Origin: an uncultured delta proteobacterium
GTDB lineage: Bacteria > Desulfobacterota > Binatia > Binatales > Binataceae
NCBI GenBank assembly: GCA_963724765.1
Contig: CAVRVY010000003.1
Coordinates: 1,408,001 to 1,472,000 of the forward strand
DNA: 64,000 nt
Reading direction: 5' to 3'
The position numbers and the translations under genes were made by a program. How positions within the stretch are numbered: position 1 is the stretch's first letter; each line of letters begins with the position of its first letter. The notes under the pieces were generated by a model. That model was given only the letters and a program-made list of their open reading frames with translations, was not told where the DNA came from and searched no databases. Of the stretch, positions 4,714 to 46,614 are shown piece by piece.

Positions 4714-4762
<49 letters not shown>

Positions 4763-6119: not shown

Positions 6120-6137
6120 ATCGGAAGGCAGCCATCG

Positions 6138-8610: not shown

Positions 8611-8694
8611 GCACACGAGAGGATCGAGTGGGCCTGAAGAACTTAGCCAATTATCATAAGATGCGGCTGTTGTGTCCGCTTTCCGTGAGCACTG

Positions 8695-9927: not shown

Positions 9928-10092
9928 AAGGGCCGTTCACGAACAGCCTCCACGGCACGAGGATGCCGGCGGCATCTTTGCGATACTGCTCCCGCTCTGA
10001 TCGGGCCGCGGCGCTCGCAAAATTCAAACGCCGGGTCTCCAGCGCTTTCTTGCAGGACTTCTTTTGTAGGGGCCGTTCGTGAACGCCTTCTA
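9928..10092. repeat. Inverted pair of GTAG-type REP-like palindromes (BIME-like)
   Basis: 10066-10092 reads GTAGGGGCCGTTCGTGAACGCCTTCTA; the reverse complement of 9928-9953 reads GTGGAGGCTGTTCGTGAACGGCCCTT. Confidence 0.65.
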
Positions 10093-19881: not shown

Positions 19882-19983
19882 TGGCAGAGCCTGCCCCCGA
19901 AACCCATGCGCGCGGACGTTAACACTGCCGCAGCGGCGGCCGCAACGCGCGTCGGGACGCGCGCCGCGCCGTGCCATCCCGAC

Positions 19984-28388: not shown

Positions 28389-28400
28389 TAAGAGATGGCG

Positions 28401-29537
28401 CTAGGTAAACGGGAGCGCCTTGGCGGGCTGCGGAATCCCCTTCTGCCGCGCGCGTATCAGCAAATCGCGCAGTTTGGCCGGGTTGACCGGCTTCTTGAAC
28501 AGCGCGCCTTCGAGTCCCTTGAGGCGGCTTCGCATGATGATGTGATCGGGGTCATAGTTGTACGCGGTCATCAGGACGACCGGCAGATGAGGCATCTCTT
28601 CCTTGACGCGCGTGTAGAACTCGTAACCGTCCATCTCGGGCATCACGACGTCGGAGATGACCGCGTCGACGCGCACGTTGCGCAGGATGCCGAAGGCGGT
28701 GCTCGGGCGGATTGCGGTGTAGACCTGGCAGCGTTCGGCGCGCAGCACGTCGGCGAGCGAACTCACGACCGACAGGTCGTCGTCGAGCACCAGCACTGCC
28801 ATCCCGGCCAGCGGCCAGTCGCATCCGTTCTTGGACGCGTCGGGCACCGCCGAGCGTTCTTCGGCTTCGGCGCCGCGCGGCGCAAGGTCGGCCATCTTCT
28901 TGCCCGCCAGGTAGTCGCGGGTTTCGTAGATGCCCTTGCGAGTCATCTCGTCGAGCCGGCGCACGATACCCTGAACGCGCCGGATGCCGCTGCGGATCGA
29001 GTCGAGCCGCTCGTGCTCGACCACCAACTCGGCGTCGGAGAGGTGCGCTTCTACGCAGCGCGCCAGCAGGTCGAGGTTGTTGGTGATGGCTTCCAGCGGA
29101 TTATAGATTTCATGCGCCAGGCTGACCGCGATTTCGCCGGCCGTCGCGAGCTGCTCGCGATGGCGCATCAGGCGGATATCGCGGGCGAAGCCGATCGAGC
29201 CGGCCTCGGTGCCGTCGTGCTCATAGATGATCGAGCCCGAGATGGCGACCGGGATGAGCTCGCCGTCCTTGCCGCGGAGCACGGTCTCGAAGTTGGAGAT
29301 GCGCCCCGAATCCTCGCCGGCGGCGCGCATCGCCTTCATTACGCGGCGCGCTTCCTCGAGCGAGGGGTAGATGGTGGTGATTTTCTGGCCGACGATTTCC
29401 TCGGCGGAGAAGTGCAGGCTTTTGCGCGCTCCGTCGTTGTAGAAAATGATCGTGCCGTTACGGTCGACCGCGATGATAATGTCTGGGGAGCTTTCGACCA
29501 GGCTTTGGAGATAGTTATGGTCCAATGATGACAACAT
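28401..29537 (-). CDS. PAS-HisKA-receiver signalling protein lacking a HATPase domain
   Basis: PAS (SPDIIIAVD...FYNDGA), H-box SLAHEIYNPL and REC (VLDDD, SDVVMPEMDG, MTAY, KP). Confidence 0.85.
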   Translation of the reverse strand: MLSSLDHNYLQSLVESSPDIIIAVDRNGTIIFYNDGARKSLHFSAEEIVGQKITTIYPSLEEARRVMKAMRAAGEDSGRISNFETVLRGKDGELIPVAISGSIIYEHDGTEAGSIGFARDIRLMRHREQLATAGEIAVSLAHEIYNPLEAITNNLDLLARCVEAHLSDAELVVEHERLDSIRSGIRRVQGIVRRLDEMTRKGIYETRDYLAGKKMADLAPRGAEAEERSAVPDASKNGCDWPLAGMAVLVLDDDLSVVSSLADVLRAERCQVYTAIRPSTAFGILRNVRVDAVISDVVMPEMDGYEFYTRVKEEMPHLPVVLMTAYNYDPDHIIMRSRLKGLEGALFKKPVNPAKLRDLLIRARQKGIPQPAKALPFT

Positions 29538-30392: not shown

Positions 30393-30581
30393 AGTGGCGG
30401 CGCCTGGGAAGCCTGCGGAACCTGTCGAGTCGCCGGACTTGCCGAAAGCGGCGGATTGGGCGAGGAATAAATCGGTTGGCGGGGGAGTCCTAAATTGAGT
30501 GGTGCTCGGCGGCTTAGGGCAGCGGTTCAGTTGCCATAGCATCGCGCTTACACCTACAATTCGTGCCGGAGAGCATCTTAA

Positions 30582-31892
30582 ATGGCAGAACCTCTTAGCT
30601 TCGAAGCGCTCGCGAGCCGCGAGTACGTGCTTTCGAGCGCGGAAAATTTCGTTCTGTACGTCTTGCTCGAAGCAATTGCGCAGGGCGGAGGCGGCGCGGG
30701 CGGCGGCTCACGATTGCCATTGAACCTGGGCCTGGTAATCGACCGCTCGGGTTCGATGTACGACGAACGGCGCCTCGAATTCGTGATCGAGGCGGTCAAG
30801 TTTCTCGCCGAGAACGTGGCGCCCCAGGACAAGGTCGCGGTCGTCGCCTTCGCTGACCGCGCCAAGGTGATCGTCGGCTCGGACGAAATCCATGACAGAG
30901 GCGTCGTGCGGCGCGCGATCGAGGATATCGATTTGCTCGAGATCGGCGGCGGCACGCAGATGGCGTTGGGGATGCGTGCGGCGATCGACGAGGTCAAGAA
31001 AAATCTCGCGCCCAACCGGCTCAACCGCGTCCTGGTGCTCACGGACGGACAGACCTACGAGGAAACCGCCTGCATCGATCTGGCCAATCAGAACCGCGAT
31101 CAGATGTCGTTCTCGGCGATGGGCGTGGGGGTCGAATTCAACGAGAAGCTGCTGATGCGGATCTCTCAAGACTCGCACGGCAAGTATCACTTCATCGGGA
31201 ACCCGGCGGAAATTCCCGGCATCTTCGAGGACGAACTGGCGGGCCTACGCGCGGTCAGCGTGCGCAACGGACGAATCGAAGTCACGCTCGCGCAGGGCGT
31301 GCAGGTGCGCGAGGCCTTTCGCGCCAGTCCCGAAATCTACTCGCTCGGCGCGCCGCTGGTTGGCGAAGACCGCCATATCAGTTACGAGATCGGTGACCTG
31401 GAAGCCAACGTTCCCGGCTCTGTACTGATGACCCTGGTGCTGCCGCCACGCAAGCCCGGACCGGTGCGAATTCTGCAATCGAACCTGCGTTACGAGGTGC
31501 CCGGCGTCGGCGAACAGAGCCTGGGCCGCGACCTGACCGTCGAGTACACGCTCGACCGCACGCTCACCGGCAAGGTCAGTGGGCGCGTAATGAACCTGGT
31601 CGACCAGGTCTCGATCGCCAAGATGCAGTCGCGCGCCGAAGAGGAACTCAAGGCGGGCAACGTGGATCGCGCGACACGCCTGTTGAGCAATGCGATCCAG
31701 GGCACCCAGCGTCTGGGTAACGTCAAGGCGACGCAGGCGCTGGTGGGCTTGATGAATGAGGTCAAGAAAACCCAGACGCTGCAGACCAAGGCGGCCAAGA
31801 CCACGCTCTTGCAGGCCCAGGCCGTGGTGCGCAAAACCCAGATGCTCGATCCGGACGCTCTGAAGGATTTTTCCAAGCCCGACCAGGGGTGA
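30582..31892 (+). CDS. vWA-domain protein (YfbK/CLCA-homolog type)
   Basis: MIDAS DRSGSM, GGT and LTDG; C-terminal beta domain and helical tail. Confidence 0.9.
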   Translation: MAEPLSFEALASREYVLSSAENFVLYVLLEAIAQGGGGAGGGSRLPLNLGLVIDRSGSMYDERRLEFVIEAVKFLAENVAPQDKVAVVAFADRAKVIVGSDEIHDRGVVRRAIEDIDLLEIGGGTQMALGMRAAIDEVKKNLAPNRLNRVLVLTDGQTYEETACIDLANQNRDQMSFSAMGVGVEFNEKLLMRISQDSHGKYHFIGNPAEIPGIFEDELAGLRAVSVRNGRIEVTLAQGVQVREAFRASPEIYSLGAPLVGEDRHISYEIGDLEANVPGSVLMTLVLPPRKPGPVRILQSNLRYEVPGVGEQSLGRDLTVEYTLDRTLTGKVSGRVMNLVDQVSIAKMQSRAEEELKAGNVDRATRLLSNAIQGTQRLGNVKATQALVGLMNEVKKTQTLQTKAAKTTLLQAQAVVRKTQMLDPDALKDFSKPDQG

Positions 31893-31973
31893 CAGTCGAA
31901 TTGAAATTAATCTGACCGTAGAGTCGGCCTGAGATGGCGATGCCGTGATGCCGGCCAGTGAGGTGCTGAGAAG

Positions 31974-32627
31974 ATGATCAAGTGCAGCGAGTGCGGCTAC
32001 GAAAATATCGATGGGCTTGACTATTGCGACGGCTGCGGCGCGAAGCTGAATGCCGCGGCCCCGGCGCCGGCAGGCGAAAGCGGCGGGGCTGCCGCCTCCG
32101 AATCGGCCGCCGCGGAACCAGCGCCGGCCGAGGCCGCGCCCGCCGAGGCCGCCTCCGAGGCTCCGGCGACACCGCCTCCATCCGAAGCGCCGACCGGCGA
32201 AATCAAGCCGCCGCCCGAAGCGAGCGCCACCGCAGCGGCTGCTGCGCCGGCCGCGGAAGCCCCGGGGGCTGCGGCGGAGGCTTCGACGGCACGCGCCAAG
32301 CTGCAAGTCGTGCGCGGCGGACGCAAGGGCCAGGAGTTCCCGCTCGAGGACGGCAACAACCTGGTCGGCCGATGGGATCCGGAGACCGGCGCGTTTCCCG
32401 AGGTCGATCTCGACCAGGACGATCCCGAGGCCAAGATCTCGCGCAAGCACGCGCTCATCCGCTTTGAGGGCGGCAAGATCACGGTCGAGGATATCGGCAG
32501 CCTCAACGGCACCTATGTTAATCGCCAGCCGCGCCTGATGCCTGGAAATCCGATCGAGCTGAAAACGGGTGACGAGATCATTATCGGCAAAACATTTCTC
32601 AAGTTGATCGTCGAGCCGGTTTCCTAG
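31974..32627 (+). CDS. Zinc-ribbon + FHA domain protein
   Basis: CSECG...CDGCG, Ala/Pro/Glu linker and FHA (VGR, ISRKHA, DIGSLNGT). Confidence 0.92.
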   Translation: MIKCSECGYENIDGLDYCDGCGAKLNAAAPAPAGESGGAAASESAAAEPAPAEAAPAEAASEAPATPPPSEAPTGEIKPPPEASATAAAAAPAAEAPGAAAEASTARAKLQVVRGGRKGQEFPLEDGNNLVGRWDPETGAFPEVDLDQDDPEAKISRKHALIRFEGGKITVEDIGSLNGTYVNRQPRLMPGNPIELKTGDEIIIGKTFLKLIVEPVS

Positions 32628-32715
32628 ACCCGAGGTGCGTGAGATGCCACGCGGAGGCCCGGTCGGGGAGCCGGGCCTTTGCCGTCTCGGCGCCAGGTTG
32701 GATCGCTAAGTCATC

Positions 32716-34560
32716 ATGAAACCCGGTGAGCAGCTTCCCGCCGGTCAAATGCTCGATGGCCGTTACCGTGTACACAAGGTACTCGGCCAGGGCGGGATGG
32801 GACGGGTCTATCTCGCCAACGACACCCGTCTGGCCAACCGGCCCGTCGCCGCCAAGGAAATGATCATCGGCGACGGGATCGCCGAGAAAAAAGCGATCGA
32901 AGACTTCGCGCGCGAGGCCCGCGTGCTCGCCTCGCTTTCGCATCCGGGCATCCCCAACGTCATCGACTACTTCGCCGAGAACAACCGCCATTACCTGGTG
33001 ATGGAGTTCGTCGCCGGCGGCGATTTGCAGGGCATGCTCGACAAGCTCGGGCCCAAGGGCAAATTGCCCGAGACGCGGGTGCTGCGCTGGGCGCGCCAGA
33101 TGCTCGACGTGCTCGGTTTTCTGCACAGCCAGACGCCGCCAATCATCTATCGCGACCTCAAGCCCGGCAACATCATGATCGACAAGGACGGCCGTGCGAT
33201 GCTGATCGACTTCGGCATCGCGCGCTTCCTGCCGCCCGGCGGACGCGGCACGCAAATCGGCTCGGTCGGCTATGCTCCGCCCGAGCAGTACATGGGCAAG
33301 GTCGAGCCGCGCTCAGACCTCTATTCGCTCGCCGCCACGATGCATCATCTGCTGAGCGGCCGCGATCCGCAGCTCGAGCCGCCGTTTAGCTTCCCACTGC
33401 TGCGTGATCTGAGTCCCGAAGTATCGATAAAGACTGCCGAGGTCGTGATGCGCGCGCTCGACAAGGACGTCGAAAGGCGCCCGCCCTCGGCGCGCGACAT
33501 GATGCACGCGCTGCCGGACCCTGGTCCCGAGCCCAAGGCCTCAGGCGCACTCGGTTCCAGCGCGGGCAGTAGCGCGCCGGTGGCCTCCATGCGGACCGTG
33601 GTGCTCGACCGTCCGCAATCAGGCGGCTCGCCCGGCGTGGCCGTGCAGCCCCCGGCAAGCGGGCGGCGTCTCGGCGCGCCGCCATCGTCGAGCAGCGCGT
33701 CCGTGAAACCGTCGCCGACCAATATGCCGACCGTGGTGCTAGGCCGTTCCGAACCTCGAGGACCCGCCGCTGCCGCACCTCCGTCTGCGTCACCACTGGC
33801 CGCGCCGCCGACGCTCGCGTCGAGCACGGCGGCAGGCGTCGCCAGGGTGAAATCGCTGGCGCGGTCGGCGCGGGCGATGGCGCAGCGGGCGGCGGCGAAG
33901 ATAGAAGCACAACAATCGCTGTTCGCCAGGCCTGCTGACGTCTCTTCGACCGCCAAAACCCAGGACCTAAGCGGCAAGGCAAAGGAGGTGGCGCTGGCGA
34001 CGCCCGTCGCCGCACCCTCCAGAAGCGAGTCGATCTCGAAGAGCGGGCCGGTCTCGAAGGTTCGGGCCAAAGAAGTCCCCTCGGGAACAAAAGCAGGCTC
34101 ATCCAGGAACGCCGCGCCGAGCGGGTCCGCGTCTGTTTCTTCGAGCGCATCGTTGGGTGCATCGTCGGGGGCGTGGACTGCGAGCGGCAGGAAAGCCGGC
34201 CAAAACGGCAACTCGCCGGCGCCCTCGGATGCGCAAATCAATGCGGGCGCTTGGCTGGTTGCGAGCGGCAGCGCGCCGCGGTTCGGGCTGATGCAGAGCC
34301 GCACGATCGTCGGACGCGCGCTCGGCGGCGAGGAACCCGATATCGACCTCGGCACGCTCAAGGGCATCGCCGATCGCGTCTCGCGCCGCCATGCCGAGAT
34401 CATCAAACACGGCGCGGACTACTTCATCCGCGACCTTGGCAGCCTCAACGGCACCTACATCACCGGCCGCGGACGCCTGGGCCGCGACCAACTCTACAAG
34501 CTCAAGGATCGGGACCAGGTGGTGTTCGGCAGCGCTAAACTGGAGTTTCGAAAGGGCTAA
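32716..34560 (+). CDS. Ser/Thr kinase with C-terminal FHA domain
   Basis: GQGGMG, AAKE, YRDLKPGN, DFG and YAPPEQ; long low-complexity linker; FHA (VGR, SRRHA, DLGSLNGT). Confidence 0.93.
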   Translation: MKPGEQLPAGQMLDGRYRVHKVLGQGGMGRVYLANDTRLANRPVAAKEMIIGDGIAEKKAIEDFAREARVLASLSHPGIPNVIDYFAENNRHYLVMEFVAGGDLQGMLDKLGPKGKLPETRVLRWARQMLDVLGFLHSQTPPIIYRDLKPGNIMIDKDGRAMLIDFGIARFLPPGGRGTQIGSVGYAPPEQYMGKVEPRSDLYSLAATMHHLLSGRDPQLEPPFSFPLLRDLSPEVSIKTAEVVMRALDKDVERRPPSARDMMHALPDPGPEPKASGALGSSAGSSAPVASMRTVVLDRPQSGGSPGVAVQPPASGRRLGAPPSSSSASVKPSPTNMPTVVLGRSEPRGPAAAAPPSASPLAAPPTLASSTAAGVARVKSLARSARAMAQRAAAKIEAQQSLFARPADVSSTAKTQDLSGKAKEVALATPVAAPSRSESISKSGPVSKVRAKEVPSGTKAGSSRNAAPSGSASVSSSASLGASSGAWTASGRKAGQNGNSPAPSDAQINAGAWLVASGSAPRFGLMQSRTIVGRALGGEEPDIDLGTLKGIADRVSRRHAEIIKHGADYFIRDLGSLNGTYITGRGRLGRDQLYKLKDRDQVVFGSAKLEFRKG

Positions 34561-34580
34561 ATGCCCAAGGGCCAAGTGTG

Positions 34581-36749
34581 ATGATAACGTGCCCAGAGTG
34601 TGGCCAGGCGGCTCCCGACGACGCCAAGTTCTGTGACCGTTGCGGCCAGGGACTCGCGAAGTCTATCGCGCCCAAGGTCGAATATGCGATCGCGGCGCTG
34701 GAGCCTGGCGCTTTAGTGCGCGGCGAATTCCGCATCGTCGAGCTGATCGGCCGCTCGGCGCTGGAGAATCGCTATCGTGCCGAGCGGACGCGCAATGGCG
34801 CCGGTCCCGAGCGCCTGCAATTGCGTGAGCGGCTGGGGCCGACGCCCGCGGAGAGCGCGCACGAGGAAGCGCCGGCAGTCGCCTGCGACAACGAAACTTC
34901 GCCGCACGAAGATCCAACCGGACCACATGCCAAGACCGCGGAGTTGAAGCATCCCGCATCGCCACCGCCCGCTGACTCAACCGCCGCGGCGGGTGCTGGG
35001 GTCGGCGGCGCAAAGAGCGCAGCCGATACGGCCGCGCTGGCAGGCTCCAACGGTGCCAGCGCCGCCCCTCAGCCGGCCGCGGTCGCGCCCGGCGCAGAGG
35101 AGAGCGCCGCCGTCAACGACAACGAGGGCGCGAACAACGAGGGCGCGCAGGCGCCCGCCGCTGCGCGGGCTTCAGGTGCGACCGAACCGCTGACCCTCGA
35201 TGAAACGTCGGCCGAACGCGAACCCGAGCCGGCGCCGCAGCCTGAGCCGCAGGCTGCGTTGTCGTCCGCTACGGAAGCCGCCGCGAGCGGAAGCGGGGCA
35301 CGCCAGAGCGTGGAGCATGACGACTTGCGCGAAAATGTGCGCGACAATCAGGAAGATCTGGGCGATCTATTCGGACGCGTGCTTGCGCTTTCGCTCACCG
35401 TCAACCATCCGGCCTTCCAGCGCGCGGCCGACGGCTTCGCCGACGGCGGTCGGGTTTACCTGGTCTACCCCGACGAGCAGTTCGTCGCGCTGGCGCAGCG
35501 CCGCGGCGGGCTCAAGATGAGCGAGGGCGAGGCGGTCGGAATCGCGATCCAGGTCTGCCAGGGAGTTTCGTTCCTGAACCGTCGCGGCCTCAGGCTCAAC
35601 GACATCTGCCCGCAGTCCGTCGCCTATGGCCCCGGCGGCCGGGTGAAGCTCCTCGGTCTGGACTACGTCAGCAACGACAACGAGCTTCAGAGCGAACCGA
35701 TCTTCAACGACGGCTACACCGCGCCCGAAGTCTATCGCGGCAAGCGCGTCGACAAGCGGGCCGACGTGTTCTCGATCGGCGCGCTGCTTTACAGTTGCCT
35801 GACCGGTGAACGGCTGGAGTCCGAGAGCTGGCGGGAGGAGGCGGGCCTCGTGCGTTTCTATCCGCCGCACGTGGTCTCGCCCGAGCTGGAGCAAGTGGTA
35901 CGCCGCGCGCTACTGTTCGATCCGCAGGGGCGATGGCCGACGGTGGATGCGCTCAAGGCTGAGCTGGTCAGACTGAATGCGGCGGTGCGGATTCGCGCCG
36001 CCGTGATGACCGACGTCGGGATGGTGCGCGAACATAACGAGGACGCGACGATGGCGGTCGAGTTCGTGCGCCAGAGCCTGGTCGGTCCGGCAGAGAGCTA
36101 TCTTTACGTGGTGGCCGACGGGATGGGCGGGGCGGAGGCGGGCGAGGTCGCCAGCGCAATTGCCGTCGAAGCGATTCGCAACTATGTTGAAGACGGGCTG
36201 GGTCGCGCGGAGGCCCAAAATCCGAGTCAACTGTTGACGGCGGCGCTCGAGGAGGCCAACCGCAAGATCATCGAGTACCAGGCGGCGCATCCAGAGTCCC
36301 GTGGGATGGGGTCGACCGCGGTGAGCCTGCTTATCGTACCGCCGGAAGGAGCTGTGGCGTGGGTTGGCGACAGCAGAGTTTACCTGTCCGACGCTTCCGG
36401 GCTGCGCCAATTGACGCGTGATCATTCTCTGGTGCAGCGGCTTATTGAAATCGGCCAGATCACGCCCGAGGAGGCGCGCCATCACGAACACAAAAACGTG
36501 ATCACGCGCTCGCTCGGCGCGCGCCAGAGCGGACCGGCCGGAGCCGAGGGGCTTGCGCTCAAGCTCAAACGCGGTGACCGCGTAATGCTGTGCAGCGACG
36601 GACTGACCGCTCACGTTGAAGACAAGACAATTAGCGAAGTGCTGCGCCGCCACGACGATCCGTACGCGGCGACGCGCGAGTTGGTAGTGGCTGCTAACGC
36701 GGGGGGTGGAACGGACAACGTCTCGGTGATTGTTGTGTTTGCTGATTGA
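34581..36749 (+). CDS. Zinc ribbon + pseudokinase + PP2C phosphatase fusion
   Basis: CPEC/CDRC; kinase C-lobe YTAPEV and DVFSIG with degenerate LNDICPQS and no DFG; PP2C NEDA, ADGMGG, WVGDSR, CSDGL and GGTDNVS. Confidence 0.88.
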   Translation: MITCPECGQAAPDDAKFCDRCGQGLAKSIAPKVEYAIAALEPGALVRGEFRIVELIGRSALENRYRAERTRNGAGPERLQLRERLGPTPAESAHEEAPAVACDNETSPHEDPTGPHAKTAELKHPASPPPADSTAAAGAGVGGAKSAADTAALAGSNGASAAPQPAAVAPGAEESAAVNDNEGANNEGAQAPAAARASGATEPLTLDETSAEREPEPAPQPEPQAALSSATEAAASGSGARQSVEHDDLRENVRDNQEDLGDLFGRVLALSLTVNHPAFQRAADGFADGGRVYLVYPDEQFVALAQRRGGLKMSEGEAVGIAIQVCQGVSFLNRRGLRLNDICPQSVAYGPGGRVKLLGLDYVSNDNELQSEPIFNDGYTAPEVYRGKRVDKRADVFSIGALLYSCLTGERLESESWREEAGLVRFYPPHVVSPELEQVVRRALLFDPQGRWPTVDALKAELVRLNAAVRIRAAVMTDVGMVREHNEDATMAVEFVRQSLVGPAESYLYVVADGMGGAEAGEVASAIAVEAIRNYVEDGLGRAEAQNPSQLLTAALEEANRKIIEYQAAHPESRGMGSTAVSLLIVPPEGAVAWVGDSRVYLSDASGLRQLTRDHSLVQRLIEIGQITPEEARHHEHKNVITRSLGARQSGPAGAEGLALKLKRGDRVMLCSDGLTAHVEDKTISEVLRRHDDPYAATRELVVAANAGGGTDNVSVIVVFAD

Positions 36750-39115
36750 TGGCGAATACTGGCACATCCGGCGCTCTGCCTAACGAGCCGCTCACGTCCG
36801 GCACGGTTCTGCAAAACCGCTACGATATCGAACGCCTGCTGGGCGGCGGCGGGATGGGGATGGTCTACCTGGCGCATGACCAGCGCCTGGCCAACCGCCC
36901 GTGCGCGGTCAAGGAGATGGTCGACCACTTCATCGATCAGCAGCAGCGGATCGAGGCCAACGAGTACTTCGCCCGCGAGGCCGACACCCTGGCCCAGCTC
37001 AAGCACGCGGCCATCCCCGCGATCACCGACCGCTTCGACGATCAAAATCGCCACTACCTGGTGATGGAGTACGTCGAGGGCCGCAACCTCGAGGAGGAGA
37101 TTGCGGCGCGCGGCGGCCCGCTGCCCGAAGGGCTCATAATCGACATCGCACGCCAGCTCTGCGACGTGCTCGCCTACCTGCACGGTTGCACGCCGCCCGT
37201 GATCTACCGCGACATGAAGCCGTCCAACGTGATGCTGACGCCGAAGGGGCGGGTGGTGCTGATCGACTTCGGCATCGCGCGCCTGTTCAAGAGCGCGCGC
37301 AAGGGCACCATGATCGGCACGCTCGGCTTCGCGCCACCCGAGCAATACCAGGGTGCGGTCGACCCGCGCAGCGACATCTATTCGCTCGGCGCGACGCTGC
37401 ACTACGTCCTTACCGGGCGTGACCCCGAAAAATTTCCGCCCTTCAGCTTTCCCCCGGTGCGCGACCTGCGTCCGGAGGTCTCGACCAACCTGGCAGGCGC
37501 GATCGACCGCGCGCTCGCCTACCAGGCCGACGCGCGCCCCGCGAACATCCAGGACTTCCGCGACATGCTGCTCTACGGCAAGGGCCTCGGCGAGCTCGTT
37601 GGATCGCCGGCGGTCACCTCGCAAGGCGGTACCGCCGACCTCGTCCTGTCGCCCGACGTCGCCGAGGCGATCGCGCCGTCGCATCGCCGGCGCCGCCGCC
37701 GCAGGCATCGCGCCGTGGCCCTGGCAGCCTTCTTCGCAATCGTGGCCGGTGGCGCTTTCGGCGCGACCTACGTCTATAACAATCCGCAATTGCAGCAGCG
37801 GCTGGGGGTCAAATCCTTCGTCGACAGCTTGCCCTGGAAGGTCCAGGAGCGCCTGGACGCCGCCGAGACCCATCCGCTCGATTTCCAGCGCATGACGCTC
37901 CAGCTCTCGACCCGCTCGGGCACGCCGCTCAGTTCGCCGCGGGCGAGCTTCACCAATATCGAGTTGGCCAACAACCAGTACCTGCAGTGGAACACCTCGT
38001 TCGCCAATCGCCTCGCGGGGCTCAAGGGACAAGACGAGAAGGTCCAGGCGCGCTTCTTCAGTCCCTCGGGCCTGCAAATCGCTTCCAGCGACGCGAGCCG
38101 GTTTGTCGGACCAGGCGAGAACACGGCCGAGTTCAGCGGCGTCGCGCTGATGCCGGACCTGGGCGCGCTCCCGGCCGGCAATTATAAGGTCGGAATCTAC
38201 GTAAATGACCAAGCGGTCGCCGAGCAGGCGTTTGCGGTTACCCAGGACCTCAACGCGCTGAAAGCCGCCGAGGCCGCCAACGAAGCCGAGAAGGCGCGCG
38301 AGGCGGCCGACAAGGCCAAGGCACATGACGAAGCAGAACGTCTCGCGATGCTCGAGGTGCGCCGGCGCAAGCCCCTCCAGCTGGCCGGCATCGAATTCGT
38401 CAACAGCACCAAATCGGGCACACCGCTGGCCGGGCCGGCGACGAGCTTCAGTGCGGCCAAGGTGCTGTTCGTCAACTGGCGCATAACCTTCGATAATCGA
38501 CTGTTCAACCTCGACACCGGTCAATACCGGGTCGACGCCGCGTATATCGCGCCCGACGGCCATACCCTGGGCAGCGTCGACGACATCCGCATCGTGCCGC
38601 CCTCCGCGCGCAGTGCGACCTTCAGCGGCAGGGTCGGCAACTCGGCCGGCGGCGCATTTCTGCCCGGGCAGTACACGGTCAATTTCTATCTCAACGGGCA
38701 GTATGTCGCGCAGAAGAAGTTTCGCGTGCTGGCCGACAGTTCGCAGTCCTACCCGGCATCGCTCGGCGGTTCATCGGGCCTGCCCAGTGCTGGCACCGGC
38801 ACGGGCACAATCGATGTTCCGACGCTCGCCACCGGACGTATCGACGGGCTGTCCGGCGTCACCAATATCCCGTTGGAGTTGCGGCTGCGCCCGCAGCCCA
38901 ACGGCTTCCTGCACGGTGAGATGGTGATTCATCAGGCGGGCTACGGCGCCACGCCGATCCAGGGCTTTATCCGCGGCAACCATGTCGAATTCCAGGTGCC
39001 GTACGGCGCCAAAACGCTGTACTTCGACGGCCGGCGCAATGCCGACCAGCTCAATGGTACGTTTTCCGCCACGCCCACTGGTGAGCGTGGCACCTGGACG
39101 ACCGTCACCAATTGA
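36749..39115 (+). CDS. Membrane-spanning receptor-type Ser/Thr kinase
   Basis: GGGGMG, AVKE, YRDMKPSN, DFG and FAPPEQ; poly-Arg stop-transfer then a TM helix; duplicated extracytoplasmic beta domains. TGATG coupling to the upstream gene. Confidence 0.93.
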   Translation: MANTGTSGALPNEPLTSGTVLQNRYDIERLLGGGGMGMVYLAHDQRLANRPCAVKEMVDHFIDQQQRIEANEYFAREADTLAQLKHAAIPAITDRFDDQNRHYLVMEYVEGRNLEEEIAARGGPLPEGLIIDIARQLCDVLAYLHGCTPPVIYRDMKPSNVMLTPKGRVVLIDFGIARLFKSARKGTMIGTLGFAPPEQYQGAVDPRSDIYSLGATLHYVLTGRDPEKFPPFSFPPVRDLRPEVSTNLAGAIDRALAYQADARPANIQDFRDMLLYGKGLGELVGSPAVTSQGGTADLVLSPDVAEAIAPSHRRRRRRRHRAVALAAFFAIVAGGAFGATYVYNNPQLQQRLGVKSFVDSLPWKVQERLDAAETHPLDFQRMTLQLSTRSGTPLSSPRASFTNIELANNQYLQWNTSFANRLAGLKGQDEKVQARFFSPSGLQIASSDASRFVGPGENTAEFSGVALMPDLGALPAGNYKVGIYVNDQAVAEQAFAVTQDLNALKAAEAANEAEKAREAADKAKAHDEAERLAMLEVRRRKPLQLAGIEFVNSTKSGTPLAGPATSFSAAKVLFVNWRITFDNRLFNLDTGQYRVDAAYIAPDGHTLGSVDDIRIVPPSARSATFSGRVGNSAGGAFLPGQYTVNFYLNGQYVAQKKFRVLADSSQSYPASLGGSSGLPSAGTGTGTIDVPTLATGRIDGLSGVTNIPLELRLRPQPNGFLHGEMVIHQAGYGATPIQGFIRGNHVEFQVPYGAKTLYFDGRRNADQLNGTFSATPTGERGTWTTVTN

Positions 39116-39297
39116 GCGTCGCGGGCAGGGTGGAACCGCGCTCGCGGGCCAATCGTTATCCGATCGCGATTATCCGATATACTTTCGCGGTCGTCGAATA
39201 ACTCGGAATAACTCGGCAGCAACTACACCGGGCATCAATCAGCGCGGCGCGCTTGAACGTTCGAGCGCCACGCGCAATGCTCTGTGACGGACGCGCT

Positions 39298-40170
39298 ATG
39301 GCGAGGAATGTCTCTCAGGAAAAGCTCCTCTTTTACGCAGCCGCGGGCGGCCTGGGTGGATTCGCGGCCTGGGGCGTGCAGGAGTCGATGGCCGGCATCC
39401 GGTACTATCTGCTGCGCGACGCGGTGCTGGGCGCAATCATCGGGCTGTTCATTTGCGCTTTTCTCGCCTCGATCGAGGCGCTCAGCGTAGGCCAATGGCG
39501 CCAGGCGATACGCGGGGTCAAGAGCGGCGCGATCTTCGGCGCGCTCGGCGGCGCCGCGGGCTTGATCGGTGGTGAGATCCTGTTCGACATCCTGCACGGG
39601 TTTGTCGGCCGCGTAGTCGGGTGGGCGATCCTCGGTGTGGCGGTGGGACTGGGTGTTGGATGGGCCTCCGGGTCAGCCGCGCGCAAGCGCAACGGCGCGC
39701 TCGGCGGACTTATCGGTGGTGCACTTGGCGGAGTCTGCTACCAGACCCTGACCACCACGTTTCCGCAGTTCTTCGGCCGCGCGATAGCGATAATCGTGCT
39801 CGGCATGCTGATCGGCTTTTTCATCGGGCTGGTGGGCGAGTTGCTCAAGCGCGGCTGGCTGATGGTAATCCGCAGCCAGAGCCGCAACGCGCGCGAGGGC
39901 CGCGAATATCCGCTGACCAAGCCGGTCACGATCATCGGGCGCGCCGAAGAGAGCGATATCGGACTGTTTGGCGACCAGGCCGTGATGGCCCATCACGCGA
40001 TTATCCGGCGCGAGGGGCGCGACTTCGTAGTCAGTCCGGCCGGCGGTGGCCAGGTGCTGATCAATCGCCGCCCGGTGGCGGGCCGCCAGGCGCTGCGCAG
40101 CGGTGACCGCGTCGAGGTCGGCGGAACACTGTTCATTTTTCGCGAACGCGCCCAAGCCGCGCAGAGTTGA
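39298..40170 (+). CDS. Multi-TM Gly-rich membrane protein with C-terminal FHA domain
   Basis: About six Gly-rich hydrophobic helices, then EYPLTKPVTIIGR...HHAIIRR...LRSGDRVEVG. Confidence 0.85.
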   Translation: MARNVSQEKLLFYAAAGGLGGFAAWGVQESMAGIRYYLLRDAVLGAIIGLFICAFLASIEALSVGQWRQAIRGVKSGAIFGALGGAAGLIGGEILFDILHGFVGRVVGWAILGVAVGLGVGWASGSAARKRNGALGGLIGGALGGVCYQTLTTTFPQFFGRAIAIIVLGMLIGFFIGLVGELLKRGWLMVIRSQSRNAREGREYPLTKPVTIIGRAEESDIGLFGDQAVMAHHAIIRREGRDFVVSPAGGGQVLINRRPVAGRQALRSGDRVEVGGTLFIFRERAQAAQS

Positions 40171-40179
40171 GGCGCAAAG

Positions 40180-40968
40180 TTGAGGAGCGTCGTGGGCTTA
40201 CGCACTGCCGGTTGGCAACTGCTCGCCGCGGCGATGGCGGCGGCGCTCATGGCCGCGTGCGCGACCACCGTTCAGCAGGAAATCGCCGAGGAGCCGCCGA
40301 CTGCGGTCGAGACGCTCTCCTACTTTCCCTTCCAGGTGAAGGGCTATCAGAACAGCTATCCGCGGAGCCGAATCCTGGTGCTGATGCCGGTCGATGCGCG
40401 CGATTTCAAAGATGTTGCGGGCCAGAGCCATGAGCCGCAAGACGGCAATCCCGCAACCGGCGTGATGCTCGGGCCGGACGGCGCCGTCGTTCAGCGGGTC
40501 TATAGCTCGCCGCTCGGCCCGATTCTGCAAGGCGCGATCGTACGCGCGGCCGATGAGGCCGGGATGCTCGCGACGGCCTCCAACGATACGTTGGAGGCCG
40601 CTCTCAAGGAGACCAACGAGGATTACGTCCTGGCGAGCAGGATTACCCGATGCTGGGTGAACAAGCATACCGGGACGGATGCCAACGCGCCGGCCAGCGC
40701 GGGGCCGGGCTGGTTCACCACTGCCGACGTCGCGCTGGACGTAATCATCTACAAGCCTCCGTTCAACGTGGCCTTCTGGCAAGGCGAAAGCGCCGCAACC
40801 TACAACGATCCGCCGGCCGATAATGGCAGCGGGATGGGCGACGACGTTCCGATTTACGACCGGCCGAGCCAGGTTCTGTCCGTGGCGCTGACGCGGGCGG
40901 TGGCGGGAATTTTCAAGCGCGAGGCGCTGCACGCGCTGGTGGTGCAGGACACGGTCCGCGCGCCCTGA
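40180..40968 (+). CDS. Hypothetical lipoprotein
   Basis: Lipobox LMAAC after a hydrophobic stretch; 9 nt after the FHA gene stop. Start uncertain. Confidence 0.7.
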   Translation: MRSVVGLRTAGWQLLAAAMAAALMAACATTVQQEIAEEPPTAVETLSYFPFQVKGYQNSYPRSRILVLMPVDARDFKDVAGQSHEPQDGNPATGVMLGPDGAVVQRVYSSPLGPILQGAIVRAADEAGMLATASNDTLEAALKETNEDYVLASRITRCWVNKHTGTDANAPASAGPGWFTTADVALDVIIYKPPFNVAFWQGESAATYNDPPADNGSGMGDDVPIYDRPSQVLSVALTRAVAGIFKREALHALVVQDTVRAP

Positions 40969-40986: not shown

Positions 40987-41928
40987 CTACTTCTTGCCGC
41001 CGGCGCGCCGGCGCGCGCCGCCGCCCGCGCGCGCTGCGCGGGCAGGCGCCTTGGCGCCGCCGGTGCCGGTCGCCTTGGCCGCCTCGGCCTCCGCACCGGC
41101 TGCGGCGGCGGACTCGGAGCCTGCCCCTTGGGCACTCGCCGCGCCGGCCGCGCCGCGCTTTTCGAGCGAGGCCTTCAGCGCCGCCATAAGGTCGATCACC
41201 TGGCCGCGGCGCGGCTCCTCGTGCGCCTCGGTCACCTGTTGGCCGGCGATCTTCTGCTGCGCCGCCTCCTCGACCTTCTCGCGGAAGGTGTCGTGATACT
41301 TCGAGAGGTCGATTTTCTTGCTGGTCAATTCGCCAATCAGCCGCTCGGCCAGGGCAAGTTCGCTCTCCCTGGCGGCCTCATTGGTCGCGCGATCGATGTC
41401 TTCGACCGGACGCACCTCGTCGGCGTAGTAGACCGTATGCATCATGAGCCCTTTTTCGTAGGGCCGCAGCACCACCACGTGCTCCTTGCCGCGGAGCGTG
41501 TAACGCCCCAGCGCGACGCGCCCCGTCTTGGTCATCGCGTCGGTGAGCAGGCGATAGGCTTTCGCGGACGCCTGTTCGCATCCGAGGTAGTACGAGGTCT
41601 CGAAATAAATCGGATCGATCTGCTCCAGCGGAACAAACTCGGTGATCTCGATCGAATGCTCGCCGCCATGCGCTTCCAGGGCCTTCAGTTCTTCGTCGGT
41701 GAAAGTGACGTAGCGATCCTTGGCGACTTCGTAGCCACGCACCAGCTCGCTGCGGTCGATGATCGTGCCCTCGACCGGGCAGAAGATTTTCTGCTGGATA
41801 CGGCTTAGGTCCTTGGCGTGCAGCAGGTTAAAGCTCACCGACTTTGACCGCGTCGCCGGGAACAGGCGGACAGGGATCGAAACCAGGCCGAACGAGATGT
41901 TGCCGTTGCCGACGGGACGTGATGCCAT
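40987..41928 (-). CDS. ku: Non-homologous end-joining protein Ku
   Basis: GNISFGLVSIPVRL, RGYEV, IDPIYFETSYYL, IDLMAALKASL and a basic Ala-rich tail. Confidence 0.95.
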   Translation of the reverse strand: MASRPVGNGNISFGLVSIPVRLFPATRSKSVSFNLLHAKDLSRIQQKIFCPVEGTIIDRSELVRGYEVAKDRYVTFTDEELKALEAHGGEHSIEITEFVPLEQIDPIYFETSYYLGCEQASAKAYRLLTDAMTKTGRVALGRYTLRGKEHVVVLRPYEKGLMMHTVYYADEVRPVEDIDRATNEAARESELALAERLIGELTSKKIDLSKYHDTFREKVEEAAQQKIAGQQVTEAHEEPRRGQVIDLMAALKASLEKRGAAGAASAQGAGSESAAAAGAEAEAAKATGTGGAKAPARAARAGGGARRRAGGKK

Positions 41929-46221: not shown

Positions 46222-46512
46222 CTAATGCGCAGCGGGAGCCGCCGCCGGACTCGCCATCGCTGCGGGGCTCGCCATCGCCGCCGGGCTGGCCATGCCTGCG
46301 GCCGCCTTGGCGGCCTTGCGGCAGCGATAGACGCTGCTTTTGGAGATCTTCATGTCCTTGGCGACCTCGGAGACCTTCTTGCCGCCCTGGAGTTCCGTCA
46401 TCACCTGCGAGCAGTCAACCTTGCTGGCGGCGTAAGCGTTGGAGAGGCCGAACTGCAGGGCCAACGCGGCCGCGACGGCAAACGAGGCAACCAAAATCAG
46501 CTTTTTCTTCAC
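46222..46512 (-). CDS. Small secreted protein with an HTH-like core and (AMASPA)n tail
   Basis: GGAGGA RBS before GTG 46512; signal peptide ending AYA; VSEVAKDMKISKSSVYR; three MASPAA repeats. Confidence 0.78.
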   Translation of the reverse strand: MKKKLILVASFAVAAALALQFGLSNAYAASKVDCSQVMTELQGGKKVSEVAKDMKISKSSVYRCRKAAKAAAGMASPAAMASPAAMASPAAAPAAH

Positions 46513-46614
46513 GATGTTCCTCCGCGCGTTGAAGTGCCGTCTAAAAAAACCCACCGCAGTATCTCAAAAATGTCAAAGTTCTAAAAGGATAAAATCTAAA
46601 AAAGTTGGCCGCGG

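Follow-up and report, generated by a model that had tools for sequence, protein, structure and literature searches.

The seven-gene cluster at positions 30582-40968 of the window (the entire 64,000-nucleotide stretch of DNA analysed) is an enlarged, membrane-wired Binataceae version of a known phosphorylation switch. We hold with moderate confidence that it represents a widespread prokaryotic phospho-threonine switch, in which a core formed by the first two genes, g1 and g2, is served by its own writers (the kinases g3 and g5) and its own eraser (the phosphatase g4). The observations that carry this view are the domain content of the proteins, their homology to ArnB/ArnA of Sulfolobus and to the products of the Deinococcus radiodurans DRA0331-0334 operon, conserved gene linkage, and an enrichment of T-x-x-L motifs in g1. 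A preliminary description of the locus had recognized no characterized system with this architecture, and had named a match to a characterized operon as a finding that would count against its proposal. Such matches exist. Profile matches identify the g1 and g2 pair with the archaeal ArnB/ArnA module of Sulfolobus, and a four-gene core is homologous to DRA0331-0334, which has been partly characterized (bioRxiv 10.64898/2026.01.23.701218). The parts are therefore real, yet this kind of system has precedents, because its core pair is known from Sulfolobus and from the Deinococcus operon. Whereas the vWA plus zinc-ribbon-FHA core was already known, particular to Binataceae is the combination of the g3 kinase-FHA fusion, the g5 receptor kinase with its beta-sandwich ectodomain and the g7 lipoprotein, which were found together only here among the lineages examined.

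All seven open reading frames run in one direction on the + strand at the coordinates originally listed, and Pfam agrees with the domains that had been assigned to them. Their codon composition is of the coding type (GC3 0.77-0.85 versus GC2 0.40-0.55). The TGATG coupling described earlier is seen between g4 and g5 (36747-36751), where the probable g5 start, the ATG at 36749, overlaps the g4 stop codon. Likewise, g4 probably starts at the ATG at 34581, and the conserved start of g6 is probably Met16 (39298). Gaps of 81, 88 and 137 nt separate g1 from g2, g2 from g3 and g5 from g6, respectively. A promoter-like site on the + strand (TTGCCA-18-TACAAT, 30531-30560; consensus match 10/12) lies 22 nt 5' of the g1 start codon, but constitutes weak evidence because the region holds three such sites compared with 1.6 ± 1.1 in shuffles. 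No + strand terminator-like site was found within 30582-40968. Transmembrane segments and signal peptides of all seven proteins were called by a simple hydropathy scan, which detected neither hydrophobic segments nor signal peptides in g1 through g4. The host is an uncultured soil bacterium of the Binataceae, and another kinase and PP2C gene pair is located 10 kb upstream of the locus.

Gene g1 (30582-31892, + strand; 436 amino acids) encodes an ArnB-type cytoplasmic protein comprising a vWA domain together with a beta-sandwich and a helical tail at the C terminus. Pfam assigns VWA at 62.6 bits and, beyond vWA models, no family at E <= 0.01. The MIDAS site is intact, as the preliminary description had it: D54, S56, S58, T125 and D155 are all there, and among 34 family members none of them is conserved in fewer than 90%. 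A profile built from the g1 family (A1) matches the solved structure of ArnB from Sulfolobus acidocaldarius (8S05_A, E 9e-33), its paralogue 5A8J (E 1e-27) and Catenulispora 4FX5 (E 7e-34). Residues 13-426 also align with the D. radiodurans DRA0331-type protein (25% identity, E 4e-26). This vWA protein could plausibly serve as a scaffold or as a target.

The g1 tail (residues 365-422; 31674-31847, + strand) is Thr-rich and offers candidate phospho-acceptor or FHA-docking sites. It carries six T-x-x-L motifs (TRLL, TQRL, TQAL, TQTL, TTLL and TQML), compared with two in residues 1-364. Among 110 family representatives, T-x-x-[LIM] occurs 2.03 times per 45-residue tail versus 0.65 in shuffled tails (500 shuffles, highest mean 0.87) and 0.56 per 45 residues in the rest of the protein, and 75 of the 110 tails hold at least two such motifs, whereas shuffling yields 14.6 such tails on average and 25 at most; this control consists of residue shuffles only and leaves the i, i+3 periodicity of an amphipathic helix uncontrolled. 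In the profile alignment, the tail lies opposite the ETTRRI repeats of ArnB, which are phosphorylated according to PMC6509490. The motifs differ in their inner residues, reading T-Q-x-L in g1, T-R-R-I in ArnB and T-[RK]-[RK]-L in most relatives. PMC6509490 and PMC12852372 report that the Hanks kinases ArnC and ArnD phosphorylate threonines in the C-terminal helical domain of ArnB, that this domain is then bound by the FHA domain of ArnA, and that the ArnA zinc finger docks on unphosphorylated ArnB. Judging by its sequence, the threonines of the g1 tail are putative phosphorylation sites.

Gene g2 (31974-32627, + strand; 217 amino acids) encodes an ArnA-type adaptor with the same zinc-ribbon and FHA architecture as ArnA. 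An N-terminal four-Cys zinc ribbon (residues 1-25; Pfam Zn_Ribbon_1, 20.2 bits) is connected by an Ala/Pro-rich linker to a canonical FHA domain (residues ~112-211; 57.5 bits). Invariant in 25 orthologues are C4, C7, C18, C21, G132-R133, S156-R157-x-H159 and N178-G179. The g2 profile (A4) matches ArnA (5A8I, 2.1e-15; 8S05_C, 2.5e-15), but FHA likeness by itself fails to single out ArnA because OdhI/GarA-type proteins score marginally better (OdhI, 5.5e-16). The Sulfolobus counterparts ArnA and ArnB form a demonstrated physical complex (PMC12852372). Complex prediction for g1 with g2 lends weak support to an equivalent interaction, with a score of 0.46 versus 0.00 for the best control, at least 51% of contacts in agreement between runs and partner pLDDT of at least 64. 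Of 157 solved complexes, 116 reach the mark used, as do 2 of 215 mismatched pairs, but among those scoring <= 0.60 it is reached by only 18 solved complexes plus both mismatches. Moreover, the prediction may show likeness only, since the like complex 8S05 has already been solved.

Genes g3 and g5 encode the two intact Hanks kinases that had been proposed, as both retain the Gly-loop, Lys, (Y)RD..N, DFG and APE motifs by sequence and alignment. The g3 protein (32716-34560, + strand; 614 amino acids) is a soluble kinase (Pfam Pkinase, 135.1 bits) joined through a long low-complexity linker to a C-terminal canonical FHA domain (51.5 bits). The g5 protein (36746-39115, + strand; 789 amino acids) is a receptor kinase with a cytoplasmic kinase domain (130.9 bits), a single hydrophobic segment at residues 323-341 following an Arg run, and a 448-residue ectodomain. 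An AlphaFold2 model of residues 350-789 (mean pLDDT 84.4) predicts two beta-sandwiches linked through a helix of 40 residues, along with a third beta domain. Foldseek returned only generic beta-sandwich matches for this ectodomain (best RbmA, E 2.5e-9, TM-score 0.20/0.35), and its fold gave no clue to a ligand.

The g4 protein (34578-36749, + strand; 723 amino acids) consists of a zinc ribbon, a disordered insert, a kinase-like region (residues ~272-460) and a PP2C domain (residues 477-720). Pfam detects the zinc ribbon, Pkinase at 43.2 bits, confined to profile positions 52-259, and PP2C at 54.5-59.2 bits. In the kinase-like region of g4 and all aligned orthologues, LNDICPQS replaces HRDLKPxN and GLD replaces DFG. 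Because the catalytic loop and the DFG motif are degenerate, this region is a pseudokinase, in agreement with the earlier assignment. The PP2C part exceeds the NCBIfam cut-off for Stp1_PP2C_phos (237.9 versus 230 bits) and looks like an active phosphatase from its sequence. The pseudokinase-PP2C fusion is common to g4 and the Deinococcus DRA0334-type protein, with homology extending over the kinase C-lobe and PP2C (34% identity over 399 columns, E 1e-35).

Gene g6 (39253-40170, + strand; 305 amino acids) encodes a multi-pass membrane protein with at least four hydrophobic segments, very rich in Gly, and a C-terminal FHA-like domain (Pfam Yop-YscD_cpl, 43.8 bits; FHA, 30.8 bits). The proposal of three FHA readers stands for g2 and g3, whereas the g6 domain lacks two of the motifs that usually contact phosphothreonine. 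In alignments of g6 and its orthologues, S-R-x-H reads M/L-A-x-H, without the Ser and Arg, and the N-G motif is replaced, without its Asn. Thus, g6 is probably not a canonical phosphothreonine reader. Gene g7 (40180-40968, + strand; 262 amino acids) encodes a predicted lipoprotein with a signal peptide and lipobox LMAAC (Cys27), and matched no Pfam or NCBIfam model. Its AlphaFold2 model (mean pLDDT 69.8, pTM 0.66) yields weak Foldseek matches to the lipoproteins DUF330 XCC0632, LptE, PelC, CsgG and PqiC (E 1e-4 to 5e-3, TM-score 0.3-0.5). In the searches made, g7 turned up in no loci other than Binataceae or Binataceae-like ones, and its nearest Atlas clusters are mostly Binatota. Among 63 Binataceae loci with room for them, g6 is present in 54 and g7 in 53. 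Both are absent within ~3 kb of g5 in 9 of the 63, which indicates that their membership of the locus is looser.

The preliminary description had viewed these genes as one self-contained phospho-Thr signalling locus and had suggested a survey of gene neighbourhoods, the results of which support a conserved Ser/Thr signalling unit. The order g2, g3, g4, g5 follows g1 in 62 of the 65 Binataceae loci with enough DNA. The best conserved gene is g1 (76-97% identity over 80 Binataceae loci), with strong orthologues (E <= 1e-150) in 20 of 24 Binataceae genomes, the other four being 74-91% complete; inheritance within the family looks vertical. Beyond the family, including in other phyla, homologous partners remain linked to the vWA gene in shuffled order. 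Two loci of the same phylum, G039 and G108, have variant gene orders; G039, from another family, contains g6, and no g3 counterpart was found there. The Deinococcus core of ArnB-like vWA, zinc-ribbon FHA, long PP2C and Hanks kinase proteins corresponds to DRA0331-0334, with the order vWA, zinc-ribbon kinase, zinc-ribbon FHA, long PP2C in D. radiodurans and Deinococcus sp. QL22. The core recurs in metagenome lineages and in cyanobacterial plasmids, as in Trichormus plasmid B (vWA, zinc-ribbon FHA, PP2C). An FHA or PP2C gene adjoins the vWA gene in 20 of 80 metagenome loci, and in 13 of the 15 that score >= 440 bits on A1, the other two having <= 350 nt of downstream DNA. Zinc ribbons recur on the FHA, PP2C and kinase partners of the vWA protein in these other lineages. 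According to the ArnAB structure report (PMC12852372), ArnB-like three-domain proteins are widespread, mostly outside multi-phosphorylation.

For the phospho-threonine switch, we infer all phosphorylation and binding steps, in which direction the signal flows and what its output is, as follows. The tandem beta-sandwich ectodomain of g5 would sense an extracytoplasmic cue, possibly in concert with g7 (lipoprotein) and g6 (membrane protein). Then g5, g3 or both would phosphorylate several threonines of the T-x-x-L-rich g1 tail, which could be clamped by the FHA domain of g2 and perhaps also that of g3. Clamping would tighten a g1-g2 complex that the zinc ribbon had held together loosely. The switch might then be reset by the PP2C domain of g4, recruited through its own zinc ribbon and pseudokinase domain. 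The output would lie in what binds, in each state, to the MIDAS site of g1 and to the zinc ribbon as it is freed or masked; its likeliest form is a response of the regulatory, gene-expression or stress-adaptation type.

Alternatively, the locus might control an envelope, cell division or secretion machine, with membrane-machine targets and the vWA protein as a mere accessory. Possible analogues are the mycobacterial FhaA/FhaB-PstP-PknA/PknB cluster and the threonine-phosphorylation pathway of type VI secretion, PpkA-PppA-Fha1 with Tag lipoproteins. The receptor ectodomain of g5, the membrane-anchored FHA-like g6 and the weak LptE/PelC/PqiC-like fold of g7 would suit such a role, and g2 and g6 resemble FhaB_Rv0019c and the type VI FHA protein TagH, although these NCBIfam scores fall far under the cut-offs (FhaB, 52.9 versus 125; VI_FHA, 35.1 versus 120). 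We consider this unlikely, given that the scanned neighbours include no gene for RodA, PBP, FtsW or secretion of type VI, III or IV, that the cytoplasmic g1 is always present and g6 and g7 are the most variable components, and that the vWA protein still has its FHA, PP2C and kinase partners where a lineage is without g5-type receptors, g6 or g7.

Less probable still is a TerY-P-like system for phage defence or conflict, in which the vWA, kinase and PP2C proteins sense infection and phosphorylation releases the Gly-zipper protein g6 as a membrane-damaging effector. TerY-P is defined by a vWA, PP2C and Ser/Thr kinase triad, and TerY-P-like modules protect from phages (PMC11090510, citing Anantharaman 2012 and Gao 2020). 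At the present locus the g6 segments are very Gly-rich, the PADLOC models PD-T4-6 and mad6 give high scores to the kinase domains of g3 and g5, and distribution at the phylum level is patchy, with a match at E <= 1e-40 in 1 of 150 other genomes sampled. However, these kinase matches reflect generic Hanks-kinase likeness, defence equivalogs of NCBIfam score far under their cut-offs (MAD6, 127 versus 460; PglW, 73.5 versus 990), and the kinases carry neither a C-terminal zinc ribbon nor an OB fold. As the preliminary description had maintained, this is not a TerY-P triad, since g1 has no PADLOC match and reaches only 24.3 bits on Pfam vWA-TerF-like (cut-off 29.4). Its suggestion of conflict sensing is not supported, with no defence-specific match and, by Pfam, no nuclease, NTPase or other effector gene in the cluster. 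The fixed gene order and strong conservation of g1 across the family are unlike a mobile defence island, and no integrase or other mobile-element gene borders the locus directly; a transposase-like HTH open reading frame ~5 kb downstream (46222-46554) comes closest.

It is very improbable that these are independent Ser/Thr signalling genes kept side by side through descent: their clustering could be historical because the host genome has only 5 kinase-domain matches above the Pfam cut-off and 7 FHA matches, the kinase and PP2C pair upstream fits this notion and the three intergenic gaps would permit separate promoters, but four protein types are linked to ArnB-like vWA proteins in distant lineages despite shuffled order, g4 and g5 overlap by one base, the region holds no + strand terminator-like site, and the Sulfolobus equivalents of g1 and g2 associate physically.

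Seven open reading frames on the + strand, g1 to g7, fill positions 30582–40968 of the window, and all have a codon composition of the coding type. The first gene, g1 (30582–31892), encodes a 436-aa vWA protein that is cytoplasmic and retains an intact MIDAS, as judged by Pfam, NCBIfam and sequence inspection. Gene g2 (31974–32627), which starts 81 nt past the end of g1, encodes a protein in which an Ala/Pro-rich linker connects a four-Cys zinc ribbon to a canonical FHA domain, and g3 (32716–34560) encodes an intact Hanks kinase followed by a low-complexity linker and a canonical C-terminal FHA domain. The product of g4 (34578–36749) begins with a zinc ribbon and a low-complexity insert of ~170 aa, and continues with a pseudokinase and a PP2C domain. 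This PP2C domain passes the NCBIfam Stp1 cut-off (237.9 bits vs 230), and the pseudokinase carries LNDICPQS as its catalytic loop and GLD in place of DFG, with the same changes in all aligned orthologues. The g4 stop codon and the likely start of g5 (36746–39115) overlap as TGATG. Gene g5 encodes an intact Hanks kinase, one transmembrane (TM) helix and a 448-aa ectodomain. The last two genes encode a Gly-rich protein that spans the membrane several times and ends in an FHA-like domain (g6, 39253–40170) and a lipoprotein without a family match in Pfam or NCBIfam (g7, 40180–40968).

The preliminary description had given the genes with these domains and coordinates and with the TGATG junction, and in these respects it is borne out. 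Pfam, NCBIfam and sequence inspection agree on its two intact Hanks kinases (g3 and g5), the MIDAS residues of its vWA protein are present and conserved in the family, and its PP2C eraser domain and pseudokinase are both found in g4. Its third FHA reader, g6, is the part that needs correction. The g6 domain and its orthologues lack the Ser and Arg of the S-R-x-H motif and the Asn of the N-G motif, and its best Pfam match is a YscD-type model. Because of these features, the g6 domain is probably not a standard phosphothreonine reader.

The genome contains only five kinase-domain matches that exceed the Pfam cut-off, three of them in this locus (the pseudokinase included), and seven FHA matches, of which three are likewise in the locus. 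Because two of the four intact Hanks kinases and three of the seven FHA domains are encoded here, the locus represents a large share of the Ser/Thr signalling of this organism, a member of an abundant, uncultured soil lineage.

An AlphaFold2 model of the g5 ectodomain (pLDDT 84.4) comprises two beta-sandwiches joined via a long helix, plus a third beta domain. Foldseek searches with this model returned only generic beta-sandwich matches with TM-scores of ~0.2–0.35, from which no ligand or family could be assigned. The g7 model, of moderate confidence, is an alpha/beta lipoprotein with weak Foldseek resemblance to DUF330, LptE, PelC and PqiC. In g6, a juxtamembrane stretch, RSQSRNAREG[RK]EY (window 39823–39864; residues ~191–204 from the conserved start), lies between the last TM segment and the FHA-like domain. 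It is invariant save for one R/K exchange among 12 orthologues down to 53% identical, and it could be a candidate kinase docking or phosphorylation site.

A scan of g1 against 1.84 billion representative proteins yielded 204 clusters at E ≤ 1e-30, many of which are ~420 aa long and align with g1 from end to end. A profile of the g1 family, A1, was built from 34 of the cluster representatives and compared with the PDB. Three entries score far above every other vWA protein: 4FX5 from Catenulispora acidiphila (7.2e-34, profile positions 47–391), 8S05_A (9.2e-33, stretches at profile positions 1–237 and 267–403) and 5A8J (1e-27). The accessible text of PMC12852372 identifies 8S05 as the complex that ArnA and ArnB form in Sulfolobus acidocaldarius, and 5A8J as the paralogue of ArnB. 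By these profile matches, g1 appears to be an ArnB-like protein that is related to ArnB in sequence and has the same three-part plan, in which a vWA domain with an intact MIDAS is followed by a beta-sandwich and then by a C-terminal helical domain.

In the archaeal system, the Hanks kinases ArnC and ArnD phosphorylate several threonines of the ArnB helical domain, within the peptides ...IETTRR, ...IETTRR and IGTVEQTR, as described in the accessible parts of PMC6509490 and PMC12852372. A Thr-rich C-terminal region of g1 lies opposite these phosphorylated repeats in the alignment. The g1 protein carries six T-x-x-L motifs at residues 365–422 and two across its first 364 residues. FHA domains commonly prefer a hydrophobic residue at pT+3. 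We counted such motifs in 110 representatives of 395–520 aa from 150 listed, leaving out 40 shorter or longer ones. The last 45 residues carry a mean of 2.03 T-x-x-[LIM] motifs, compared with 0.65 after shuffling (500 shuffles, highest mean 0.87), an enrichment obtained with residue shuffles, in which helical periodicity stays uncontrolled. The remainder of these 110 proteins carries 0.56 motifs per 45 aa. Two or more motifs are present in 75 of the 110 tails (shuffled mean 14.6, maximum 25), and the strict motif [RK][RK]T-x-x-[LIMV] is present in 19 (shuffled mean 2.1, maximum 7). The mapped ArnB sites read T-R-R-I and most g1 relatives have T-[RK]-[RK]-L, whereas g1 itself has T-Q-x-L. From these motifs, we infer that Hanks kinases would phosphorylate the g1 tail at multiple threonines.

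In the accessible text of PMC6509490 and PMC12852372, ArnA is described as having a zinc finger that a disordered linker joins to an FHA domain. It is reported there to contact ArnB loosely via the zinc finger when ArnB is unphosphorylated, and tightly via the FHA domain once ArnB is phosphorylated. Gene g2 has ArnA's plan, in which a disordered linker separates an N-terminal four-Cys zinc ribbon from a canonical FHA domain, and as in the archaeal pair it adjoins the vWA gene. The zinc-ribbon cysteines and the FHA residues are invariant in orthologues. A g2 profile matches ArnA (5A8I) at 2.1e-15, and the actinobacterial FHA proteins OdhI and GarA score marginally better. OdhI and GarA rank first for the FHA domain of g2 both among solved structures and in NCBIfam, but unlike g2 they lack a zinc ribbon and a vWA partner, and the g2 score against the NCBIfam OdhI model (61.2 bits) is far below its cut-off of 200. 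A complex prediction for g1 with g2 gave 0.46, against 0.00 for the best control, a weak signal that may reflect likeness to the solved complex 8S05.

Within the otherwise variable g2 linker, the sequence P-T-G-E-I (residues 73–77, window 32190–32204) is conserved. Among 25 orthologues, at least 90% retain its T74, and the motif is not conserved in the more distant locus of G039, a genome from another family of the class. We take this motif to be comparable to the intramolecular pThr ligand of GarA/OdhI, and by this analogy T74 could be a candidate intramolecular phospho-Thr ligand for the FHA domain of g2 itself.

The Binataceae locus also resembles ArnA/ArnB in having Hanks kinases as writers. 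Unlike ArnA/ArnB, it is bacterial and has no archaellum to regulate, and because Binataceae are bacteria, repression of the archaellum is inapplicable as a mark of such a system. ArnC and ArnD bear distant locus numbers in Sulfolobus (accessible text of PMC6509490 and PMC12852372), whereas the Binataceae kinases and phosphatase are encoded in the same cluster. The eraser also differs, since a PP2C domain fused to a pseudokinase and a zinc ribbon stands in place of the PP2A of Sulfolobus. Additional components relative to ArnA/ArnB are the kinase-FHA fusion, the TM receptor kinase, the TM FHA-like protein and the lipoprotein. The reading best supported by the data is that the locus probably encodes a switch of the ArnA/ArnB type that has its own writers and eraser and receives its input from a TM receptor kinase, and we infer every phosphorylation and binding step of this switch.

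A tblastn search of a plasmid collection, from which all named distant loci are drawn, revealed full-length g1 relatives in Deinococcus and Nostocales. The D. radiodurans locus encodes a vWA protein, a zinc-ribbon kinase, a zinc-ribbon/FHA protein and a long PP2C, and corresponds to the DRA0331-0334 operon of a 2026 preprint (bioRxiv 10.64898/2026.01.23.701218). The accessible text of this preprint (10.64898/2026.01.23.701218) reports Mn-dependent phosphatase activity and antagonism between the FHA protein and the phosphatase on kinases, merely hints at an archaeal parallel, and contains no test of the role of the vWA protein DRA0331. The g1 protein aligns with the Deinococcus vWA protein over g1 residues 13–426 (E 4e-26), and the alignment of g4 with the long PP2C (E 1e-35) spans both the kinase C-lobe, with its motifs ..TAPE.. 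and ..GALLY..LTGE, and the PP2C domain. Because this alignment runs from the kinase C-lobe onward, the pseudokinase-PP2C fusion is, as judged by alignment, common to g4 and the DRA0334-type protein.

All four cores of DRA0331-DRA0334 (vWA, zinc-ribbon-FHA, long PP2C and Hanks kinase) have homologues in the Binataceae locus, which thus contains this set of four linked genes, on the basis of pairwise homology, the domain content of the Deinococcus and Trichormus loci, and tblastn of g1 to g7 on those loci. The order of genes differs, with vWA, kinase, FHA and PP2C in Deinococcus. The Deinococcus kinase has an N-terminal zinc ribbon and C-terminal TM helices without a large ectodomain, and the operon lacks a kinase-FHA fusion, g6 and g7. 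According to the preliminary description, no characterized system was known with this architecture. That claim has to be withdrawn, because ArnA/ArnB and DRA0331-0334 are homologous to parts of the locus by profile matches and pairwise alignments, and the Binataceae locus is an enlarged variant of an already known kind of system, not a new kind.

Two details of the Deinococcus record (locus L093) emerged from these comparisons. The accessible preprint text (10.64898/2026.01.23.701218) names residues 210–368 of DRA0334 a 'KI-FHA' domain. This stretch of the gene at L093:13096–14946 aligns with the g4 kinase C-lobe and matches neither FHA nor Pkinase in Pfam at E ≤ 0.01, and from the alignment it looks like a degenerate kinase domain, not an FHA domain. 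The zinc-ribbon/FHA gene at L093:12151–13094 is annotated as two CDS overlapping by one base; one, of 225 aa, contains the zinc ribbon and is labelled 'hypothetical', and the other encodes an FHA protein of 88 aa. The counterpart in Deinococcus sp. QL22 is a single 256-aa protein, and the split in the D. radiodurans record may be a frameshift or an assembly difference.

Trichormus plasmid B (locus L094) carries vWA, zinc-ribbon FHA and PP2C genes. Metagenomes yielded 80 further loci, found with A2, a narrower alignment than A1; their neighbours were called by home-made HMMs, with a Pfam check on 128 ORFs. An FHA or PP2C gene lies beside the vWA gene in 20 of these 80 loci. Such neighbours are present in 13 of the 15 loci with at least 440 bits on A1, and in the other two the DNA extends at most 350 nt downstream. 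The 13 include four Binataceae-like loci (74–86% identical), and seven of the other nine are 33–37% identical to g1 (loci L106 and L118 being outside the measurement). Their gene orders include PP2C, (PP2C), kinase, vWA, FHA, and also vWA, FHA, kinase. Among the same 80 loci, ~60 lower-scoring vWA/beta-sandwich/helical relatives have no FHA or PP2C neighbour, and the phospho-link therefore does not extend to the whole superfamily. In other lineages, N-terminal zinc ribbons are found repeatedly on the FHA, PP2C and kinase partners. A g6-like TM-plus-FHA protein fused to a second vWA domain adjoins the ArnB-like gene in Trichormus plasmid B (L094:6710–8488) and in one metagenome locus (L107:6383–8377). 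The membrane FHA-like protein may therefore belong to the module as an optional component that recurs between lineages.

The comparative survey covered 194 genomes and two sets of 80 loci. Apart from the metagenome set, a scan of genome contigs gave 80 loci with g1 identities of 76–97% in all, mostly from MAGs labelled Binataceae, Binatus or 'delta proteobacterium', and a few under other labels. Among the 65 loci extending at least 8.7 kb past the g1 start, 62 keep the order g2, g3 FHA end, g4 PP2C end and g5 ectodomain, and 64 keep it when g3 is left out. Where at least 10.4 kb is available (63 loci), g6 is present in 54 and g7 in 53, and nine have neither within ~3 kb past g5. The gap between g5 and g6 holds 459–1726 nt of extra DNA in 28 of the 54 g6-bearing loci, and measures 60–236 nt in the window and the other 26.

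Within the genus, 12 of 16 genomes encode a strong g1 orthologue (E ≤ 1e-150), the four without being 74–91% complete, and so do 8 of 8 from other genera of the family. In the other families of the class, one of 16 genomes (G039, 60% identity) has a strong orthologue, in the order g1, g2, g4, g5 with a homologous ectodomain, and g6; g3 and g7 were not detected in this locus. A further sample of 150 genomes from the phylum gave one match at E ≤ 1e-40 (G108, 34% identity), in a locus reading weak kinase-like/PP2C, vWA, FHA, FHA-vWA, FHA, kinase. On these order and orthologue counts, the cluster looks like a stable feature of Binataceae, passed on vertically, and is rare in the rest of the phylum. 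The gene order, whose conservation had been proposed as a check, holds within Binataceae (62 of 65 loci), while other lineages carry shuffled orders.

Three other explanations were weighed against an ArnA/ArnB-type switch. The locus might serve as a controller of the envelope or of secretion, like the type VI secretion threonine-phosphorylation pathway or the mycobacterial FhaA/FhaB-PstP-PknA/B cluster. All equivalog scores are far under their cut-offs: the type VI TagH/Fha1 model TIGR03354 (VI_FHA) gives 35.1 bits for g2 and 16.9 for g6 (cut-off 120.25), the mycobacterial FhaB/FipA model NF049868 gives 52.9 for g2 and 21.4 for g6 (cut-off 125), and the two PknB_PASTA_kin scores are 194.8 and 193.8 bits (cut-off 450), with PASTA domains absent. 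Machine genes are also missing from the neighbourhood, with no type VI family among 29 window ORFs scanned with Pfam and no RodA or PBP gene among the window ORFs by the same means. We consider this explanation unlikely.

Less probable still is a defence system of the TerY-P kind, in which a vWA protein, a PP2C and a Hanks kinase are likewise presumed to form a phosphorylation switch (accessible text of PMC11090510), and whose same-operon PP2C has a counterpart in g4. However, the defining vWA type is absent: g1 matches none of the PADLOC families at E ≤ 0.01 and scores 24.3 bits against the Pfam vWA-TerF-like model, below the cut-off of 29.4. At about twice the length of TerY, g1 also has a beta-sandwich and a helical tail. 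The TerY-P kinase carries a C-terminal zinc ribbon or OB fold (accessible text of PMC11090510), whereas the C-terminal part is an FHA domain in g3, and a TM helix with a beta-sandwich ectodomain in g5. Zinc ribbons are instead N-terminal on the Binataceae FHA and PP2C proteins, and FHA proteins are integral to the locus, unlike in TerY-P. The PADLOC scan returned generic kinase matches only, with no defence-specific match. The earlier distinction from TerY-P was therefore well drawn. That the cluster is a mere neighbourhood of independent genes is highly improbable, as it is contradicted by a linkage that survives gene shuffling.

Beyond the ArnA/ArnB-type reading of this one locus, we put forward a broader and more speculative proposal, to which we lean somewhat less than to its opposite. 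The ArnA/ArnB switch might not be peculiar to Sulfolobus but an ancient, horizontally spread prokaryotic module of four parts, in which an ArnB-like vWA protein is the scaffold, a zinc-ribbon FHA protein the reader, a pseudokinase-PP2C the eraser and a Hanks kinase the writer. Its N-terminal zinc ribbons might be a common docking tag for one scaffold surface, contested by the reader, the eraser and, in other lineages, the writer, and the T-x-x-L-rich tail of the scaffold might hold a multi-site phospho-code. In that event, the Binataceae locus would offer a natural view of the input end of the switch, where a receptor kinase with a beta-sandwich ectodomain is joined by a lipoprotein and a membrane pseudo-FHA protein. 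Both the shared docking tag and the phospho-code are testable, as is the idea that the pseudokinase helps to target the PP2C domain.

Bacterial vWA-FHA-PP2C-kinase operons have been touched only once, in the Deinococcus preprint. In the open-access literature, we found no paper describing the Binataceae cluster and none treating bacterial vWA/zinc-ribbon-FHA/pseudokinase-PP2C/kinase operons as ArnAB homologues. If these systems form one family, results would be transferable between them, and the ArnB structure and phospho-site logic could be tested in bacteria, where each operon encodes its kinases and phosphatase next to one another and would serve as a self-contained set for reconstitution.

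The true upstream neighbour of the locus, by codon composition and Pfam, is a gene for a PAS-HisKA-receiver protein on the - strand (28401–29537), divergent from g1. A + strand ORF at 28395–29528 was rejected as the neighbour because the same evidence marks it as an antisense shadow of this gene. Homologues, traced via the antisense frame, lie 1.5–4 kb upstream of g1 in most Binataceae loci (a few up to ~8.6 kb), and one is present in metagenome locus L098. This neighbour may be a link between His-Asp and Ser/Thr signalling. Downstream, a Ku gene on the - strand (40987–41928; Pfam Ku 172 bits) converges on g7 with 18 nt between the stop codons. This adjacency is seen in 10 of the 80 Binataceae loci (L013–L021 and L071), and a link between Ku and the cluster is therefore improbable.

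The window also holds a second, compact Ser/Thr pair on the - strand (18913–20820), at a distance of ~10 kb upstream from the locus. It consists of a 278-aa PP2C (19984–20820) directly upstream of a 354-aa Hanks kinase (18913–19977), which is one of the five kinase-domain matches of the genome that exceed the Pfam cut-off, and it adjoins genes for glutamate synthase and an ammonium transporter. Finally, positions 4001–10000 of the window have a GC content of 0.54–0.56, compared with 0.60–0.70 in the remaining window, and hold few ORFs of coding-type composition; this segment may be foreign or non-coding DNA.
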